Below, piece by piece: positions 15,067 through 57,168 of a DNA stretch of 64,000 nucleotides. The number at the start of each line of letters is the position of its first letter. The first letter of the stretch is position 1. Origin of the DNA: Acidobacteriota bacterium. Lineage in GTDB: Bacteria > Acidobacteriota > UBA4820 > DSQY01. The notes under the pieces were generated by a model that ran no database searches, was not told where the DNA came from, and worked only from the letters and a program-made list of their open reading frames with translations. A program made the position numbers and the translations under genes. Location of the stretch: assembly GCA_037443845.1 (NCBI GenBank), contig JBBINO010000003.1, forward strand, positions 12,489 through 76,488, read 5' to 3'.

Positions 15067-16857
15067 TCAATCAACGGTAAGCGTCTTGCTCAAATTCCTG
15101 GGAAAATCGGGATCGTATCCGCGGGCCACGCTCATCCTGTAGGCGAGAAGCTGCAACGGTATCGTCGCGAGAATTGGCGCGAACAATGGGCCTGAAGGTG
15201 GGAGCGGAAGGAGCGCCTTGGCGTTGGCCTTGAGCCTCTGGTCGTCCTCGGCCACGACGATCGTGTTGGCTCCCCTGCACGCGGTCTCGTTCAGGCCGCT
15301 CACGGCCAGGTGGATGTCTTCGGGGCCGGCGACGAAAATTATCGGATAGCCTTCGTCAACCGCGGAGAGCGGCCCGTGCTTGAACTCGGTCGAGAGCATC
15401 CCCTCGCAGTGAGAGTAGGTGATCTCTTTAAGCTTCAGCGCCCCTTCGAGAGCGATCGGGTAGGTTAGGCCGTAGCCAAGGCAGTAGAGGTCCGGCGCAT
15501 CGTGAAGTTTGCCGGCCACTTCGCCTATGAGGGGGTCCGTCGTCTTGATGGCATCCTCGATAAGCCCCGGCAGCACGGCCAGTTCCTTGGTGTCCAGCCC
15601 GCCCATCCGCATCGCCAGGTAGAGAAACGCGACGCACTGGTTGGTGAAGGTCTTCGTCGCCGGGACGGATATCTCGTAGCCGCAGGCCAGCGGCAGGTAC
15701 AAGTCGCTCGCGTTCATCAGCGTCGAGCCCAGGACGTTGACCAGCCCGAGTATGGCCGCGCCCTTCGAGCGCGCCGCCTCCAGAGCGTTGAGGACGTCCT
15801 TCGTCTCGCCGCTCTGGCTGACGAAGAGGCACGCGTCGTCCGGGCCAAGCGCCCCGAGGTACTGGGCGAGGAACTGCGGCGCCAGGACGGGAACGGCCGC
15901 CCGGCCAGCGAGCCTGGCCAGGTAGACGGAACCGAGGATACAGGCGTGGTAGCTCGTGCCACAGGCGACGAGGTAGAGATTGCGCGCGTCCTGCATCTTC
16001 GACGCGAACTTCCGCGCGTGCTTGGAGGCCTCGAGCAGGTGGATCAGCTCCGCCGCCATCTCCGGCTGCTCGTGGATCTCCTTCAGCATGAAATGCGCGT
16101 AGCCGCCCTTCTGCGCCGCCTCCATGCTCTCGGTGATCTCCTCTGGCTCGCGCTCCACCCGCGCACCGCTTTCCGCGCTGAAGACCTCGGCTCCACCGGC
16201 CCGAAGCACCGCGATGTCGCCGTCCCTCAGCCTGATGATTCGCCTGGTGAGCGGAAGAAGGCAAGGCAGGTCAGAGCCGGCGCATGTGAAGCCATCGCCT
16301 AGCCCGACGACGAGGCCAGATCCCTTCTTGAAGACGTAGAGGCAATCCTCGCCGCTCAGGCCTACGACGAACGCGTAGTCCCCCTTTAGATCGGCCGCCG
16401 CCATGCGGATAGCCTCGACCATCGGAAGGCCCTTCTTGGCGTAACGCTCGACGGCGTGAACGCACGATTCTCCGTCGTTGGTGGAGCGCACCGTCATGCC
16501 TTCGGCGATGAACTGCTCCCGAAGCTCCACGTTGTTTACGACGTTCCCGTTGTGGGCGCCTATCATCCCGCCGCCGCTATCCAAGTGCGGCTGGGCGTTG
16601 GCCTTCGAGGGGGCGCCGAAGGTGGCCCAGCGAAGCTGCGCCATGCCCCTGACGCCTCGCATTCCTTCGAGGCCAAGCTTTTGGGCGACCTCCTCCACCT
16701 TGCCAACGTCCTTCCTGAGATCAATCTCCCCGCGCTCGGAAATCGTCGCGCAGCCGACCGAGTCGTAACCCCGGTACGAGAGGCGGCGCGACGCCTCGAC
16801 CAGCACAGGCCCGAGCTTGCCCTCCTTTTCCATCACTATCCCGAAGATGCCGCACAT
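15067..16857 (-). CDS. glmS: Glutamine--fructose-6-phosphate aminotransferase
   Basis: Starts MCGIFG, the Ntn Cys-1 glutaminase domain. Two SIS domains with SQSGET and the C-terminal KTLTVD/E-like end. 596 aa. RBS GGAGGG. Confidence 0.9.
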   Translation of the reverse strand: MCGIFGIVMEKEGKLGPVLVEASRRLSYRGYDSVGCATISERGEIDLRKDVGKVEEVAQKLGLEGMRGVRGMAQLRWATFGAPSKANAQPHLDSGGGMIGAHNGNVVNNVELREQFIAEGMTVRSTNDGESCVHAVERYAKKGLPMVEAIRMAAADLKGDYAFVVGLSGEDCLYVFKKGSGLVVGLGDGFTCAGSDLPCLLPLTRRIIRLRDGDIAVLRAGGAEVFSAESGARVEREPEEITESMEAAQKGGYAHFMLKEIHEQPEMAAELIHLLEASKHARKFASKMQDARNLYLVACGTSYHACILGSVYLARLAGRAAVPVLAPQFLAQYLGALGPDDACLFVSQSGETKDVLNALEAARSKGAAILGLVNVLGSTLMNASDLYLPLACGYEISVPATKTFTNQCVAFLYLAMRMGGLDTKELAVLPGLIEDAIKTTDPLIGEVAGKLHDAPDLYCLGYGLTYPIALEGALKLKEITYSHCEGMLSTEFKHGPLSAVDEGYPIIFVAGPEDIHLAVSGLNETACRGANTIVVAEDDQRLKANAKALLPLPPSGPLFAPILATIPLQLLAYRMSVARGYDPDFPRNLSKTLTVD

Positions 16858-16932
16858 GAAGCCCCCTCCAGCCGGCGCGCCCGCGCGCGGCCCTATTGTA
16901 CCTCACCGCGCGGCGGAAAGAGATGCACGAGA

Positions 16933-17059
16933 CACAAGACACCAAACACTTCTTCTCCTCCGTGACCTTGGCGCATGTAATGCAACTATTATCGCTCCTC
17001 CGTGCCTCGGCGCCTTCGATTCAATCTTTCATTCCTTCGTGACCTTTGTGGCCTTGGTG
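16933..17059. repeat. Repeated intergenic element, copy A: heptamer tract plus conserved CGTGACC-box blocks
   Basis: 16933-16967 CACAAGACACCAAACACTTCTTCTCCTCCGTGACC matches 39215-39248 at 31 of 34 positions. 17020-17059 TTCAATCTTTCATTCCTTCGTGACCTTTGTGGCCTTGGTG matches 39379-39418 at about 34 of 40. An internal motif YTCCGTGRCCTYGG recurs four times. Lies in the glmS / zinc-ribbon-gene divergent intergenic region. Confidence 0.5.
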
Positions 17060-17132
17060 TTCTCCGTGGTGAGAATGCTTTTCGCGCCGCGAAGCGGCGA
17101 AGGGCGGGGCGTGGTATGCTTTTACGGAGGAG

Positions 17133-18245
17133 GTGGCGATGGCTGAAGCGCCGAAAACCTTTCCGTGCCCGCAGTGCGGCGGCCAGCTTGCGTGGAACCC
17201 CGCGCTCCAGCAGATGAAGTGCGCCTACTGCGGGTCGGACGTCGAGGTCCCCAAAGAGGGCCCGTTTCACGCCGAGGAGCACGACCTGCTGGCATTTCTA
17301 GACGAGCATCCTAAAGGCAAGGGCTACGGCGTCGAGCTAAAGACTCTTTCGTGCAAGCAGTGCGGCGCGACCGTCCAGCTTCCGCCGAGCGGGCGAAGGG
17401 ACCTCGCCTGCCCCTTCTGCGACACGCCGTACGTCGCGGAAGAGGCCTCGCCCGCGGCGACTCAGGACGTGGTCATGCCCGAATCGCTCATCCCCTTCAA
17501 GGTGCCACTCGCCCAATGCCAGGAGATGTTCAAAAAATGGATCGGCGCCGGCTGGTTCAGGCCGAACGACCTGAAGGCGATGGCGAGGCTCGACAAGATT
17601 ACCGGGCTCTACCTTCCCTTTTTCACCTTCGATGCACTGGCGAAGAGCGTGTGGAGCGCAATGGCCGGCTTTTATTACTACGTGACCGAAAGGGTCTCGG
17701 CCGTCGAGAACGGCCAGACCGTATGGCGCGACCAGCGGGTTCAGAAGGTCCGCTGGGAGCCGGCCTCCGGGACGAGGAGCGACTTCTACGACGACGTCCT
17801 GGTTCCGGCGGTCAAGGAGGAGAGGATCAACCTGATTTTGAAGGTTTATCCTTACGACACGAAGAACGGGCTGGTCGCATACGACACGCGCTACCTGGCT
17901 GGCTTCGGCATCCTGAACCCTGACATGGACCTGAAGTTCGTCTGGCGGATCGCGCAGAACAACATCGAGTCCGACCAGGTTTCCAAATGCAGCGGCGACG
18001 TCCCCGGCGACACCCAGCGCGACCTCGCCGTGAACACCAAGCTCTCGGAACAGACCTTCAAGCACCTGCTCTGCCCGCTGTGGGCGGGCTCCTTCAGGTA
18101 CAAGGGGAAGGTCTACAACTTCGTCGTCAACGGGGAGACGGGCGCGCTCTACGGCGAAAAGCCATGGAGCTGGTTCAAGATCACTCTGGCCGCCCTGGTC
18201 GCCGCGGGCGTCGCCGCCGCGGCCTACTACTTCTTCGGGAGGTGA
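17133..18245 (+). CDS. Hypothetical protein with two N-terminal zinc-ribbon pairs and a C-terminal TM anchor
   Basis: CPQCGG ... CAYCG and CKQCG ... CPFCD motifs. C-terminal hydrophobic helix ITLAALVAAGVAAAAYYFF. Strong RBS GGAGGAGG. 370 aa. No family assigned from sequence alone. Confidence 0.6.
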   Translation: MAMAEAPKTFPCPQCGGQLAWNPALQQMKCAYCGSDVEVPKEGPFHAEEHDLLAFLDEHPKGKGYGVELKTLSCKQCGATVQLPPSGRRDLACPFCDTPYVAEEASPAATQDVVMPESLIPFKVPLAQCQEMFKKWIGAGWFRPNDLKAMARLDKITGLYLPFFTFDALAKSVWSAMAGFYYYVTERVSAVENGQTVWRDQRVQKVRWEPASGTRSDFYDDVLVPAVKEERINLILKVYPYDTKNGLVAYDTRYLAGFGILNPDMDLKFVWRIAQNNIESDQVSKCSGDVPGDTQRDLAVNTKLSEQTFKHLLCPLWAGSFRYKGKVYNFVVNGETGALYGEKPWSWFKITLAALVAAGVAAAAYYFFGR

Positions 18246-36131: not shown

Positions 36132-36220
36132 AACGTTCTCCGCGGTAAGAAGCGTTCGGCGTTCAGCGAACAGAAGGCCTAGGTCGCCTCGATGCCGCCC
36201 GGGCGCCTTTTTTCAAGCCA

Positions 36221-36254
36221 CTAAACACCAAACACAAGACACTAAACACTAACC
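36221..36254. repeat. Heptamer tract related to repeat copies A and C (partial copy B), in the def-fmt spacer
   Basis: CTAAACAC CAAACAC AAGACAC TAAACAC: four tandem YAARCAC heptamers. The same heptamers form the 5' block of copies A (AAGACAC CAAACAC) and C (AAGACAC CAGACAC). Confidence 0.4.
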
Positions 36255-36844: not shown

Positions 36845-37816
36845 TCAACTATGGCGTGGCTGGAGCCGCGCCCTCACGGCGGAAATGGTTTTCGCCACCC
36901 GCTCCTCTATCAGCCGTTCCAGCCGTTCCTTCACCTGCGGCAGCGATTCGAGCCGCTCTCTCGCCGCCGTGCCCGGCATTTCCAGCAGGGTTGACGGCTC
37001 CGCCGCGGTCACCGTGGCCGTGCGAGGAACGTGATTCAGAAAGGCCACCTCGCCCAGGACGTCGCCGCGCGCCAAAGCGGAGAGCTCAACGGTTTCGCCT
37101 CCTATCACCGCCCTGGCGACGAGCCGTCCCTTCGTGACTAGGTAGACGGCCTCGCCCGCGTCTCCCTCCTTAAGGAGAATCTCTCCGGCATTGAGCTCCT
37201 TCCGGCCGAAGATGTCCATAAGTTCCATCACTTCGTTGGGATCAAGGCCGGGGAATGCCTCGATGAGCAGTGCCGCATCATCGGAGCTGGCCTCTCTGGG
37301 GCCCTCGGGCGACAGCGCGCCAACAGGCAAAGGCTCCAACTCCATGGGCGGGGCCTCGACTTCAACGGAGGAAGCGGAATCAACCCGCGGCTCGCTGCTC
37401 GTAACCGCCACGGCTTCCACAGGCACGGGCTCTGACTCTGCCGGGGCCGGAGCTTTTAACGCATCCAGATCGAACGAGAAGACTCCACTCTGAGAGCCGG
37501 CCTCCTCAAGCTCCGCCACGCGCTTGGCGAGCAGGCCGTCGGAAGGGAGGAGCTTGGCCGCCTTGCGGAAAAGAGCCGCCGCCTTGGGCCTGTCGCCAGA
37601 AGCGAGCGCTCCCTCGCCCTCCTGGCGGTATATGGCCGCGGCGTCTTCGCCCCGGCCCGCTCCTTCATAAGCCTCGGCGAGCCGCCACCTGAGCGAAGGA
37701 TCGTTGGGCGTCCGTTGTAGCTTCGCCTCGATGAGCTTTATCGCCTTCTTGAACTCACCGGCTTGAAGCAGAGCTAGCGGATCATCCTGCGTTTTCCCCT
37801 TAGCGAAAAGCGCCAT
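36845..37816 (-). CDS. TPR-repeat plus cyclic-nucleotide-binding (cNMP) domain protein
   Basis: N-terminal TPR-like helices (PNDPSLRWRLAEAYEGAG). C-terminal cNMP-binding beta-roll (ILLKEGDAGEAVYLVTKGRL ... GDVLGEVAFL). 323 aa. Confidence 0.65.
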   Translation of the reverse strand: MALFAKGKTQDDPLALLQAGEFKKAIKLIEAKLQRTPNDPSLRWRLAEAYEGAGRGEDAAAIYRQEGEGALASGDRPKAAALFRKAAKLLPSDGLLAKRVAELEEAGSQSGVFSFDLDALKAPAPAESEPVPVEAVAVTSSEPRVDSASSVEVEAPPMELEPLPVGALSPEGPREASSDDAALLIEAFPGLDPNEVMELMDIFGRKELNAGEILLKEGDAGEAVYLVTKGRLVARAVIGGETVELSALARGDVLGEVAFLNHVPRTATVTAAEPSTLLEMPGTAARERLESLPQVKERLERLIEERVAKTISAVRARLQPRHS

Positions 37817-37886: not shown

Positions 37887-37952
37887 GGAAGTGGGGAAGG
37901 GTGAGAAGGTGAGAAGGGTGGGAAGGTTGGGAAGGGGCGCAAGGTGAAGAAG
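37887..37952. repeat. Purine-rich degenerate tandem repeat (about 8 units of GRGAAGGKT) in a divergent promoter region
   Basis: GGAAGTGG GGAAGGGT GAGAAGGT GAGAAGGGT GGGAAGGTT GGGAAGGGGC GCAAGGT GAAGAAGG. Lies 70-135 nt upstream of the minus-strand TPR/cNMP gene and 95-160 nt upstream of the plus-strand HD gene. Confidence 0.5.
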
Positions 37953-38044
37953 GCGCGCGCTCTCTATGCTCGCCGCCTTGCCCTCCTGCCTGCATAGTGG
38001 GAAAATGACTGGCAGCCGGGGTAGCCCGGAGGAGGGGCATCTCG

Positions 38045-38957: not shown

Positions 38958-39214
38958 GAGAACGTCACATTTGCCGGCAAGCCATAGCGCGCGGCGGAAT
39001 AGGTTCGCGCAGGCCGTCCCCAGTCGCGGGTCTGCTTGAAGACGCCGTGAACGCCGGCAAATGCGCTCGTGCCGAAGATATCAAAGTCGCCGAATCGGGG
39101 CCCTGCAATGCCATACCAGGCGGGAAGGTGTAGGTTGTTTAGCCCCCCATGAGCGCGCGCCTTCGTTGCCCGCGCGACATGCAAACTACGGGCGGTGCAA
39201 ACCAACGACGAGCC

Positions 39215-39418
39215 CACAAGACACCAGACACTTCTTTTCCCCCGTGCCTGGGGGGCAATTGGGAATTTTGAATTTTCAATTTTCAATTGTGGTACTTCTT
39301 ATCTATCGGCGATTCCGGCATCAATTCAAAATTTAGAATTTAGCATCCATAATTCGGCGTTGGCCCCCGCGCCGGTGGTTCAATCTTTCCCTTCGTGTCC
39401 TTTGTGACCTTCCTGGTG
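39215..39418. repeat. Repeated intergenic element, copy C (conserved 5' and 3' blocks flanking a 130-bp AT-rich palindromic core)
   Basis: 39215-39248 and 39379-39418 match copy A (see 16933..17059). Core 39255-39345 is AT-rich, with AATTTTG/AATTTTC x3, AATTTAG x2, and the inverted pair GAATTTTGAATT / AATTCAAAATT. Confidence 0.5.
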
Positions 39419-39487
39419 AACGTTCTTCGCCAGCGCGCGGCTTGCATCGGCGCGCGGGTTCTGTCATCTTATGGGCGTGGAGGCGCG

Positions 39488-41107
39488 ATGGCTGGCGATG
39501 ATGGCTCTGGCGGTTCTAGTCAAGAGAGAACCTGGGACTTCGCCGTGGTGGGCTCCGGTTTCGGGGGCTCGGTTTCGGCGTTGAGGCTCGCCGAAAAAGG
39601 TTACTCGGTCCTCGTTCTGGAAATGGGCAAGCGATTCAGGCCGGACGATTTCGCCAGGACGAACTGGAACCTGCGGCGATTCTTCTGGGCGCCCCGCCTC
39701 TTTTGCCACGGCATACAGCAGTTGACGCTGCTGCGCGACGTGCTCGTCCTGCATGGCGCGGGCGTGGGCGGTGGAAGCCTCGTTTACGCCAACACGCTGA
39801 TGCGCCCGCACCCGAACGCTTTCAAGGACCAACAGTGGAGCGGGCTCTGCGACTGGGAAAAGGTGCTCGAACCTCACTACGCGGAAGTTGCCCGGATGCT
39901 CGGCCTCGCCGAGAACCCGAAGATGACCCCGGCCGACGACGCCATGCGCGAAGTCGCCGGCGAGCTGGGGGCACTGAAGAGCTTCGAGCCGACGAAGGTG
40001 GCCGTCTTTTTCGGCGAAGCCGGGAAAGCCTCTCCCGACCCCTATTTTGGCGGCGATGGCCCGGCGCGCGAGGGGTGCACCTTCTGCGGCGGCTGCATGA
40101 CCGGGTGCCGGCCGGGGGCGAAGAACACGCTCGACAAAAATTATCTCCACTTGGCGGAAAAGCTCGGAGCCGTCATCGAGCCGGAGACCCGCGTCCGGTA
40201 CATTGAACCGCTTGATGGAGCAGGTTACAAACTGCACGCCGAGCGTTCGACGGCCATCGTCCATCAAAGGCGGCGCGCCATCCTGGCGAGGAACGTCGTT
40301 TTCTCGGCCGGCGTCCTGGGAACCGTTCCGCTTCTTCTCGAATGCCGCCGCCGGGGAACGCTGCCCCGGCTTTCCAAGAGGCTCGGAGAGGTCACGCGCA
40401 CCAACAGCGAGGCGCTTTTGGCCATCACGGCTTGGAGCAAGAAGGTGGACCAGAGCGCGGGCATCGCCATCACGTCGCACTTCTACCTTGAAGACGGGAC
40501 GAGGGCGGAGCCGGTCCGGTACCAGAGGGGATCGGACGTGATGACGCTTTTGGGTACGACGCTGACCGACGGCGGAACGTGGCTGACGCGCCCAGTGAAG
40601 TGGCTCTGGAACTCGATCCTCAAGCCGCACCACTTCCTCCGCGCCTTCTGGCCGATCGGGAAGGCCCGAAGAACCGTCATCCTTCTGCTGATGCAGACCG
40701 CCGATAACCGCACGACGCTTCGGCTGAGGCGCAGCCTTGCCTGGCCCTTCGCGTTCAGACCCTCCTCGCGCCCGGCGCCGGACCATGTCCCGATACCCGC
40801 TTACATTCCGATAGCAAACGACATAGCTAGAAGGCTGGCGAGGAAGCTCCACGGCGTGCCGCAGAGCTCGCTCAACGAGGTGCTTCTGAATATTCCGACG
40901 ACGGCGCACATCCTTGGGGGATGCGTCATGGGCAGGAGCGCCGAAGAGGGGGTCTGCGATTCTCAAGGGAGGGTCTTCGGCCATGACGGCCTCTACGTCG
41001 CCGACGGCTCGATCATCGGGGCCAACCTGGGAGCCAACCCGAGCTTCACCATCGCCGCGCTTGCCGAACACGTCATGAGCAATATCGCGCCGAGGATGGA
41101 AAAGTAA
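39488..41107 (+). CDS. GMC-family FAD-dependent oxidoreductase (cholesterol-oxidase/choline-dehydrogenase-like)
   Basis: N-terminal FAD Rossmann motif DFAVVGSGFGGSVSALRLAEKG. GMC C-terminal domain with an active-site His region. Start moved to ATG 39488 (MAGDDG; GGAGG upstream) because the ORF-track start 39395 lies inside the repeat element. Confidence 0.8.
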   Translation: MAGDDGSGGSSQERTWDFAVVGSGFGGSVSALRLAEKGYSVLVLEMGKRFRPDDFARTNWNLRRFFWAPRLFCHGIQQLTLLRDVLVLHGAGVGGGSLVYANTLMRPHPNAFKDQQWSGLCDWEKVLEPHYAEVARMLGLAENPKMTPADDAMREVAGELGALKSFEPTKVAVFFGEAGKASPDPYFGGDGPAREGCTFCGGCMTGCRPGAKNTLDKNYLHLAEKLGAVIEPETRVRYIEPLDGAGYKLHAERSTAIVHQRRRAILARNVVFSAGVLGTVPLLLECRRRGTLPRLSKRLGEVTRTNSEALLAITAWSKKVDQSAGIAITSHFYLEDGTRAEPVRYQRGSDVMTLLGTTLTDGGTWLTRPVKWLWNSILKPHHFLRAFWPIGKARRTVILLLMQTADNRTTLRLRRSLAWPFAFRPSSRPAPDHVPIPAYIPIANDIARRLARKLHGVPQSSLNEVLLNIPTTAHILGGCVMGRSAEEGVCDSQGRVFGHDGLYVADGSIIGANLGANPSFTIAALAEHVMSNIAPRMEK

Positions 41108-57092: not shown

Positions 57093-57168
57093 TGGTGGGC
57101 CCTCCAGGATTCGAACCTGGGACCAACCGGTTATGAGCCGGTGGCTCTCACCGCTGAGCTAAGGGCCC
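57093..57168 (-). tRNA. tRNA-Met (anticodon CAT), elongator-type
   Basis: Reverse complement folds as a cloverleaf: acceptor GGGCCCT/AGGGCCC plus encoded ACCA, D-arm GCTC-AGCGGTGAGA-GAGC, anticodon arm CCGG-CTCATAA-CCGG, T-arm with GGTTCGAATCC. G1:C72 pair and a non-initiator anticodon stem. Confidence 0.85.

Follow-up and report, generated by a model that had tools for sequence, protein, structure and literature searches.

Results

Three copies of a non-coding repeat on an acidobacterial contig

The 64,000-nt stretch of contig JBBINO010000003.1 that we analyzed (the window; G+C ~62%) belongs to an acidobacterial assembly, GCA_037443845.1, and the closest relatives of its proteins come from metagenome-assembled genomes (MAGs) of uncultured Acidobacteriota. 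Three of its intergenic regions hold copies of a short repeat. Copy A (16907–17078) lies in the 281-nt divergent region between glmS (15067–16857, minus strand) and a gene for a zinc-ribbon (Zn-ribbon) membrane protein (17139–18245, plus strand), after which comes a family-9 glycosyltransferase gene. Copy B (36219–36253) separates def from fmt, two minus-strand genes of a def-fmt-rsmB operon; Pfam scans, which covered 27 of the larger open reading frames (ORFs) of the window, confirm both. Copy C (39189–39425) is found in the 530 nt that separate a DUF4190 gene from a GMC oxidoreductase gene. The first-pass annotation had block 2 of copy C overlapping the N-terminus of this oxidoreductase, which proved to be an artefact of an ORF listing that extends the gene to GTG 39395; an identical (100%) database protein of 539 aa (P0121) begins at ATG 39488, and block 2 of copy C is therefore non-coding. 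Conserved promoter and Shine-Dalgarno motifs also place the start at ATG 39488.

Copies A and C share two blocks in the same order and orientation. Block 1 (16933–16966 in A, 39215–39247 in C) is identical at 31 of 34 positions and, together with its flanks, gives a 66-nt alignment (77%, E=3e-7 against the window), while block 2 (17020–17059 in A, 39379–39421 in C) aligns over 52 nt (79%, a single 3-nt gap, E=2e-6). Both blocks had been seen in the first reading of the sequence, as had their unequal separation, which we measure at 53 nt in A and 131 nt in C, and a third locus consisting of heptamers only. At that locus, copy B, Tandem Repeats Finder places 4.9 heptamers at 36219–36252, which match copy A at E ~0.001–0.02. 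Block 2 is itself a 9-nt tandem array by the same program, with CCTTCGTGA repeated 2.9 times in A and 2.6 times in C.

The similarity survives several comparisons with chance. When all 16 intergenic regions (3.2 kb) were aligned against one another, the A/C blocks and the A/B heptamer match were the sole similarities at E<=0.05. The 19- and 20-nt cores of the repeat match these sites only, against a chance expectation of 0.02–0.07, so the resemblance is not confined to CA-rich low-complexity sequence, as the annotation had warned it might be. The copies are thus homologous, and these data confirm a genuine repeated non-coding family that reflects neither chance nor low complexity. The spacers of A and C have no significant mutual similarity. 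Beyond block 2, as far as the start codon, the A/C pair scores highest among 946 pairs of upstream regions, but by no more than 20 against 19 and 18. A recurring 14-nt box (YTCCGTGRCCTYGG) that had also been proposed dissolved on counting: at up to three mismatches it is too degenerate, with 99 sites against 56 expected, and its only exact match is at 16958. The word CTCCTCCGT, on the other hand, is enriched in the window (6 sites against 1.0 expected), and three of the six sites are in the 281-nt intergenic region of copy A.

Anatomy of the modules

A full unit consists of two arms (Table 1). The left arm has two to four heptamers (CAC-N-A-R-A) that follow a conserved extension; the right arm, which is the block-2 module, opens with ATCTTYC, continues with two to four nonamers (CCTT-N-GTG-N, units of CCTTNGTGN) and closes with TGGTGAR. 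In motif, the right arm is roughly the left one reverse-complemented and lengthened by 2 nt. Written as patterns, block 1 is CACAAGACACYARACACT and block 2 is CCTTCGTGNCCTTTGTGNCC. Copies differ in the number of units, with 2.5–3.5 heptamers in paired copies and 2–4 nonamers, and in the spacer from arm to arm, which is 5 nt in a compact copy from a related genome (locus L014, below), ~53 nt in A and ~131 nt in C.

Table 1. Positions of the repeat modules and of adjoining features in the window
Feature	Position	Strand	Remarks
glmS -10-like hexamer TACAAT (within GGTGAGGTACAAT)	16895–16900	-	Marks ancestral glmS promoter side of intergenic region A
Left extension of copy A, with first heptamer CACGAGA from 16926	16907–16932	+	66-nt A/C alignment; three-way alignment with L014
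Heptamer tract of copy A, CACGAGA CACAAGA CACCAAA CAC (block-1 core)	16926–16949	+	19/19 identical to L014 245–263
Box 1 of copy A (TTCTTCTCCTCCGTGACCTTGG)	16950–16971	+	Holds CTCCTCCGT, exact complement of Zn-ribbon Shine-Dalgarno region
Variable spacer of copy A, A+T-richer stretch	16972–17019	+	TATTAT at 16987–16992; box 2, with the second CTCCTCCGT, at 16994–17014
Block-2 head of copy A (TTCAATCTTTCATT)	17020–17033	+	A/C alignment; profile search
9-nt array of copy A: CCTTCGTGA CCTTTGTGG CCTTGGTGT TCTCCGTGG	17034–17069	+	Tandem Repeats Finder, period 9; pattern search; nhmmer E=1.4e-6
Conserved Zn-ribbon promoter/leader	17066–17138	+	GTGGTGAGAATGC; extended -10-like TGGTATGCT at 17112–17120; Shine-Dalgarno GGAGGAGG at 17126–17133
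Copy B, CACTAAA CACCAAA CACAAGA CACTAAA CACTAAC	36219–36253	+	Strand opposite to def/fmt operon
Separate 9-nt-period array, CCTTCTCAC-like on minus (GGTGAGAAG on plus), ~6 units	37887–37958	-	Tandem Repeats Finder
Left extension of copy C	39189–39214	+	CCAACGACGAGCC common to L014; 65-nt alignment with L014, E=2e-6
Heptamer tract of copy C, CACAAGA CACCAGA CAC	39215–39231	+	Sequence; pattern search
Box 1 of copy C (TTCTTTTCCCCCGTGCCTGGGG...)	39232–39256	+	A/C alignment
A+T-rich inverted repeat of 7–8-nt units (AATTTTC x3.6) inside copy C	39257–39354	+	Holds promoter-like TTCAAA-17-CATAAT at 39325–39353
Block 2 of copy C: TTCAATCTTTC, CCTTCGTGT CCTTTGTGA CCTTCCTGG, TGAACGTTC	39379–39425	+	nhmmer E=2.6e-6; Tandem Repeats Finder
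GMC oxidoreductase core promoter-like site TTGCAT-17-CATCTT	39442–39470	+	TTCTGTCATCTTA kept in L075 and L078; TTGCATCGGCGCG kept in L081

Related copies in other genomes of the clade

A scan of a 596-Gb genome collection with an 18-mer from block 1 returned 15 matches, from which the window's own three copies were absent. The sole family member among the 15 was L014, the single occurrence in the closest related MAG (GCA_037444385.1) whose Zn-ribbon protein is 85% identical to that of the window. The same 18-mer had 53 matches in the JGI metagenomes, none of them accompanied by block 2 and ~25 of them unrelated heptamer arrays. At L014, block 1 is joined directly to block 2 in a compact copy (CCAACGCCGCGCCCACAAGACACCAAACACTTTTGCCTTCGTGACCTTTGTGGCCGTGGTGAA) upstream of a pilT-like gene. 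Its block 1 is identical to that of copy A at 19 of 19 positions and its block 2 at 25 of 26, its left extension is common to C, and E-values range from 2e-6 to 6e-5. The single CGTGACC box of L014 aligns with both box 1 and block 2 of copy A, so that the long copies A and C amount to the compact form enlarged by a duplication or insertion within it.

Two further loci carry the right arm. The related MAG retains, at the locus of its Zn-ribbon orthologue (L001), a remnant (ATCTTTATCCTTCGTGAC...GTGGTGAGGATGC) together with the 73-nt promoter/leader. L078 and L079, from a third lineage, which encode a GlmS 89% identical to that of the window, have two block-2-like units upstream of and facing glmS (nhmmer E=3e-5), an orientation opposite to that of the window's module. 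Copies outside the window, for which the first-pass annotation had proposed a search, thus exist at a pilT-like gene, a Zn-ribbon gene and glmS. Profiles of both blocks, run with nhmmer on nine related loci as well as the window (~170 kb from this clade), found no further copy, and plasmid and phage collections held no similarity to the repeat. At orthologous sites the modules come and go: the heptamer tract is missing beside the glmS promoter in L077, block 2 is missing upstream of the GMC gene in L075 and L078, and the 133-nt glmS-GMC intergenic region of L081 is without arrays. The repeat is a family of non-coding upstream modules restricted to one lineage of uncultured Acidobacteriota.

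Other short arrays surround the family without belonging to it. The glmS-GMC intergenic region of L078 (1961–2075; also L079) contains an array of 12–16 heptamers (ACGTCTA, then ACTCCTG) where the corresponding position of the window has only 2.5 CACNARA heptamers; the array is hypervariable in unit sequence and number. Degenerate (CACNARA)n arrays also occur in Bacteroidota, Planctomycetota, Gemmatimonadota and other phyla, in a sample biased by the search pattern, at loci that include L013, L016, L017, L018, L020, L025, L028, L053 and L074. L016 has three such tracts in 8 kb, one of them ending 4 nt before an ATG; tracts in L018 and L028 are just 5' of glgX-like and mutL-like starts; and L053 has an array with an inverted partner. 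These arrays of other phyla recall the TAACTGA repeats (PMC4679880).

A 22.3-kb rearrangement between copies A and C

In three relatives glmS and the GMC oxidoreductase gene are adjacent and divergent: L078 (GlmS 89% identical in amino acids; 599-nt spacer), L081 (74%; 133 nt) and L076 (72%; ~700 nt). In the window, glmS and the GMC gene (39488–41107) are 22.3 kb apart. This makes copies A and C a pair of direct repeats, one at each junction of a 22.3-kb block whose translocation is lineage-specific. Their similarity is therefore partly the product of a single rearrangement between copies that already existed, and the two did not insert independently. Homology to the relatives stops at 16912–16924 on the glmS side; it begins again at 17066 next to the Zn-ribbon gene and at 39459 next to the GMC gene. 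By comparison with L001, the Zn-ribbon gene is the native neighbor of the right part of A, and the right part of C retains the A+T-rich hairpin of 7–8-nt units and GGTTCAAT, as beside the GMC gene in L078. An analogous hairpin (TTTTGAGT/AACTCA units) occupies the orthologous place in L078 (1891–1950).

The simplest account is that two pre-existing copies, one upstream of the GMC gene and one upstream of the Zn-ribbon gene, served as the homology substrate for a recombination that would have translocated the 22-kb block and left a hybrid copy at each junction. We considered an integrated island bounded by attL and attR and rejected it: direct repeats A and C do flank the segment, but its cargo is housekeeping (the Zn-ribbon protein, the family-9 glycosyltransferase, a rhomboid protease, NFACT, MCP, CheW, an MprF-like protein, nrdR, lon, a Ser/Thr kinase, rsmB, fmt, def and others) and the Pfam scans, on 27 of the window's larger ORFs, found no integrase. 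We likewise discarded the idea that a piece of glmS left as a pseudogene beside copy C, on its left, might explain the duplication, as tblastn and blastn found nothing there.

Conservation against a saturated background

Four-fold-site identity is 0.55 between the window and L001 and 0.44–0.48 between the window and L078. With these sites near saturation, unconstrained DNA should no longer align, and yet the block cores are nearly identical between the lineages, at non-orthologous loci, which implies either purifying selection or recent copying. The modules of L001 and L078 sit on contigs calibrated in this way, but the divergence of L014 is not calibratable because that locus has no other homology to the window. 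The promoter/leader of the Zn-ribbon gene (17066–17138) is 89% identical over 73 nt to L001 2786–2853, against 55% at the four-fold sites of the adjacent gene. This conservation exceeds what a promoter and a Shine-Dalgarno sequence alone would need, and the leader also holds a direct repeat, ATGCTTTT(C/A)CG, at 17074–17085 and 17116–17127.

Arrays upstream of predicted promoters

We next placed the arrays relative to promoter-like sites, which are predicted from matches to consensus or from conservation, with positions counted from the implied start site. These sites are TGGTATGCT for the Zn-ribbon gene, identical in L001; TTGCAT-17-CATCTT for the GMC gene, kept in L075, L078 and L081; TTGTCA-17-TACAAT for pilT in L014, which agrees with the consensus at 10 of 12 positions; and GGTGAGGTAMAAT for glmS, kept in three lineages (the window, L077 with a 93% and L078 with an 89% identical GlmS). 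The 9-mer arrays extend approximately from -58 to -93 at the Zn-ribbon gene of the window, -48 to -72 at that of L001, -55 to -87 at the GMC gene, -73 to -104 at pilT of L014 and -52 to -92 at glmS of L078. At all five loci, then, the array faces the gene from ~50–105 nt upstream of the best predicted promoter-like site. The heptamer arm has no fixed position: tracts are ~190 nt (A) and ~257 nt (C) from the start codon, and that of B is antisense between def and fmt.

Two features of the window resemble these arrangements. The separate 9-nt-period array at 37887–37958 is like block 2 in style, position and orientation, lying 21–92 nt upstream of a promoter-like TTGAGA-17-TAATAT that faces a TPR/cNMP-binding gene (36845–37816), but its sequence is different and it is not a family member. 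In intergenic region A, CTCACCGCG (16902–16910) and CGTGGTGAG (17065–17073) form an inverted pair, so that one YGGTGAG motif faces each of glmS and the Zn-ribbon gene; the motif adjoins the conserved glmS -10 in three lineages.

What the arrays may do

The family is probably regulatory, and we tentatively favor, from sequence, a promoter-upstream array bound by protein at the DNA level. The arrays would bind one sequence-specific DNA-binding protein, as an operator or upstream activating array, and so modulate the adjacent promoter; they would grow and shrink through replication slippage, and the module may have been copied between promoters. This is close to the operator array for a shared transcription factor that had been suggested at the outset, and the gene-facing, promoter-upstream modules fit such an idea without proving it. 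No candidate gene for a cognate DNA-binding protein lies next to any copy.

Several other observations weigh against this proposal. The distance from array to -10 varies by 52–86 nt, and the 9-bp and 7-bp periods do not match the DNA helical repeat, both of which are unusual for a cooperative operator. The promoters were predicted from consensus and conservation rather than taken from mapped start sites, and the constant position of the arrays relative to them is in part unavoidable, since any array less than 130 nt from a start codon will be close to a promoter. Orientation is the same at only four independent loci (p ~0.06), and copy B is on the strand opposite to its operon, without a right arm. 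L014 could be a mis-binned contig from a closer relative, its divergence being uncalibrated. Finally, the CU-rich units are also complementary to Shine-Dalgarno regions, which a role at the RNA level fits equally well.

A selfish or neutral dispersed repeat, REP-, BOX- or MITE-like in a broad sense, is a possible though less probable explanation. Such an element would have spread by transposition or recombination and been tolerated upstream of genes; its copies would be alike because they are young and not because they are selected, and homology for rearrangements would be their sole consequence. In its favor are near-identity at non-orthologous loci in the face of saturated neutral divergence, presence and absence at orthologous sites (L077, L075, L078, L081), copies exactly at the rearrangement junctions, loosely inverted arms (83% complementary) and a variable interior with an apparent nested A+T-rich hairpin. 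In Geobacter, moreover, elements of the IS110 family are inserted a set distance away from comparable paired sites (PMC2700814).

The first-pass description of a dispersed regulatory or REP/MITE-like element holds to the extent that the family is genuine, repeated and non-coding, but defining features of repetitive extragenic palindromic (REP) sequences and miniature inverted-repeat transposable elements (MITEs) were not found. As to REP or REPIN sequences, arm ends lack GTAG and Pfam scans of the neighborhood gave no IS200/RAYT-like domain. As to MITEs, presence/absence at orthologous sites is observed, but the boundaries of A, C and L014, defined by mutual comparison and by the breaks in homology, have neither terminal inverted repeats nor flanking target-site duplications. 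Nor did Pfam scans of 27 of the window's larger ORFs reveal a transposase or RAYT gene. Apart from its single site in the related MAG, the 18-mer has no relevant match in the 596 Gb of genomes or the JGI metagenomes, the profiles found no further copy in the ~170 kb of clade DNA, and every right arm faces the adjacent gene.

Regulation in cis at the RNA level, which we judge unlikely, would place the array in a long 5' leader, where its CU-rich units (CCUUCGUG, CUCCUCCGU) would pair with the Shine-Dalgarno sequence of the gene they face and throttle translation, with repression relieved perhaps by temperature, by a factor or by use of a proximal promoter. Sense orientation at every locus would then be required and not incidental. 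The enriched word CTCCTCCGT, three of whose six sites lie in the 281-nt region, occurs in A at 16955 and 16995 as the exact complement of ACGGAGGAG in the Zn-ribbon Shine-Dalgarno region (17124–17132), but complementarity of this kind is partly generic because any CU-rich word pairs with GGAGG. Among 45 translation-initiation regions, the first block-2 unit of A forms its best duplex with its own gene, and for the C unit its own gene comes 4th; complementarity reaches 5–6 bp only at pilT and L078 glmS. One difference between the copies is compensatory (GUGACC/UUACG in A, GUGUCC/GGGCG in C). In the minimum-energy folds of the A, L001 and C leaders, the Shine-Dalgarno region is paired with block 2, but these folds are no stabler than shuffled sequence (z = -0.6, -0.9 and 0.0). 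Conservation from block 2 to the Zn-ribbon ATG (89% against 55% at four-fold sites) and promoter-like sites upstream of block 2 (TATTAT at 16987 and TTCAAA-17-CATAAT at 39325) suit a leader, whereas at pilT (L014), glmS (L078) and the GMC gene the best promoter motifs are downstream of the array, which would leave it outside the mRNA. No Rfam family matches.

Searches for RNA structure gave little else. With Rfam 15 at the gathering threshold the whole window yielded tRNA-Met only (CAT anticodon, 57093–57168, minus strand), the sole structured RNA gene detected in the window, and at E<=10 regions A and C yielded nothing meaningful, including no glmS ribozyme upstream of glmS. Folding z-scores against shuffled sequence were -3.0 for L014, +0.9 for A and -1.0 for C, so that folding is not consistently stable; with these values and a pairing register that differs between copies, we set aside a hairpin of block 1 with block 2 that would be stable in every copy. 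Inverted similarity of the arms (12 nt, 83%) is seen in L014 only (CCGCGCCCACAA / TTGTGGCCGTGG). Sigma-54, ECF-sigma and DnaA-box readings of block 2 were set aside for misfits of spacing and sequence, judged by eye against the consensus sequences.

A bolder version, and a long shot, is a portable cassette in which the CU-rich 9-mer array and the CAC-heptamer arm could be pasted before unrelated genes, to act as an anti-Shine-Dalgarno array in a long leader or to receive an array-binding protein. Geobacter may have a cassette of this kind (class 2, TCTCCGTS), in which case it would represent an uncharacterized cis-regulatory repeat class that crosses phyla and also drives genome rearrangement.

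It is improbable that there is no family at all, with a single intergenic region halved or duplicated into A and C by the 22-kb rearrangement, helped by microsatellite-like slippage, and with B and the others due to chance. The ancestral glmS-GMC adjacency does tie A and C to one rearrangement, the orthologous intergenic region of L078 is full of unrelated 7–8-nt arrays, and CACNARA-type heptamer arrays occur by the dozen in unrelated phyla. But both arms are present in A and C in the same order, which a simple split would not yield, and the ancestral-type intergenic region of L081 is without such sequence. Local duplication, raised in the annotation as a possible artefact, therefore explains a link between A and C and not the copies at other loci: the reading is largely refuted by the L014 copy at an unrelated locus (E=2e-6 to 6e-5) and by the block-2 modules upstream of the Zn-ribbon gene in L001 and, oppositely oriented, upstream of glmS in L078.

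Hardly credible is a small gene, whether a free-standing small RNA or a minus-strand hydrophobic peptide (e.g. MFGVLCLVHLFPPRGEVQ, after GGAGGAG): the minus strand of A does have a Shine-Dalgarno-like GGAGGAG 5 nt ahead of a GTG, comparable N-termini are readable in B, C and L014, and two C/L014 differences fall at third codon positions, but the 7-nt unit period is not a multiple of three, three of five differences are non-synonymous, frames and stops differ by copy (18, 29, 33 and >100 codons), near-perfect nucleotide identity without synonymous drift is not a coding pattern, and there is neither a promoter/terminator pair around the element nor an Rfam match.

Discussion

Whatever their function, these arrays account for a concrete rearrangement, in which a 22-kb housekeeping block came to split an ancestral divergent glmS-GMC pair. 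If they are functional, as in the protein-bound array that we favor, they would open a first way into the study of promoter-upstream regulation in an uncultured lineage of Acidobacteriota, and provide a tractable case of a regulatory sequence that was copied between unrelated genes and then resized by slippage. Their practical value is limited by a small family, a narrow clade and the lack of an experimental system.

Several known systems share parts of this design. The omega repressor of plasmid pSM19035 recognizes contiguous 7-bp WATCACW units upstream of promoters, in direct or inverted orientation, which dimers bind cooperatively. The heptamers described here are likewise contiguous CAC-containing 7-bp units upstream of promoters, a resemblance only to the operators of omega and other ribbon-helix-helix proteins; the units here have another sequence, the register of the right arm is 9 bp, the context is chromosomal and no ribbon-helix-helix gene is nearby. 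BOX elements of Streptococcus pneumoniae (boxA-boxB(n)-boxC) comprise 45–59-nt modules that form stable hairpins, number more than 100 per genome and can affect expression. With them our family has in common a modular, non-coding, intergenic build near genes, in which conserved end modules surround a variable number of internal units, but its units are 7–9 nt long, its folding is not consistently stable and few copies were found.

REP, BIME and REPIN sequences and MITEs such as Correia elements are, like the present repeat, short, dispersed and intergenic, with presence/absence polymorphism and loosely inverted arms, and serve as substrates or markers of rearrangement. The repeat differs from them in lacking a GTAG or RAYT signature, terminal inverted repeats and a target-site duplication, in showing no sign of high copy number, and in its strong bias toward facing genes. 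TAACTGA heptamer repeats, known from Beggiatoaceae, Cyanobacteria and Bacteroidetes (MacGregor 2015, PMC4679880), and the cyanobacterial short tandemly repeated repetitive (STRR) sequences are also tandem intergenic heptamers in sense orientation, proposed as a binding platform. Those units are near-identical, a few nucleotides from the start codon and without a partner arm, whereas the heptamers here are degenerate (CACNARA), lie 180–260 nt upstream or antisense (B) and are coupled to a 9-nt array.

The closest architecture is that of Geobacter metallireducens, where paired sites of tandem 7–9-nt repeats at variable distance have been proposed as sites for global regulators (Aklujkar et al. 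2009, PMC2700814). Classes 1–3 of these sites, with 16–48 copies per genome both 5' and 3' of genes, were suggested to bind IHF or HU, their function being untested (PMC2700814). Like them, the acidobacterial element is multicopy and intergenic, with three to five tandem units of 7–9 nt in each of two sites on opposite strands at variable distance (PMC2700814); the Geobacter-type arrangement is present here as 2.5–3.5 heptamers and 2–4 roughly reverse-complementary nonamers spaced by 5, 53 and 131 nt. The class-2 unit TCTCCGTS[Y] closely resembles TCTCCGTGG at 17061–17069 of the window, in a comparison by consensus only (PMC2700814). The two differ in phylum, Desulfobacterota against Acidobacteriota, and in number, 16–48 copies against the handful found here. 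The element is thus best filed as new, small and lineage-specific but of an ordinary kind, one more member of the broad class of modular intergenic repeats.

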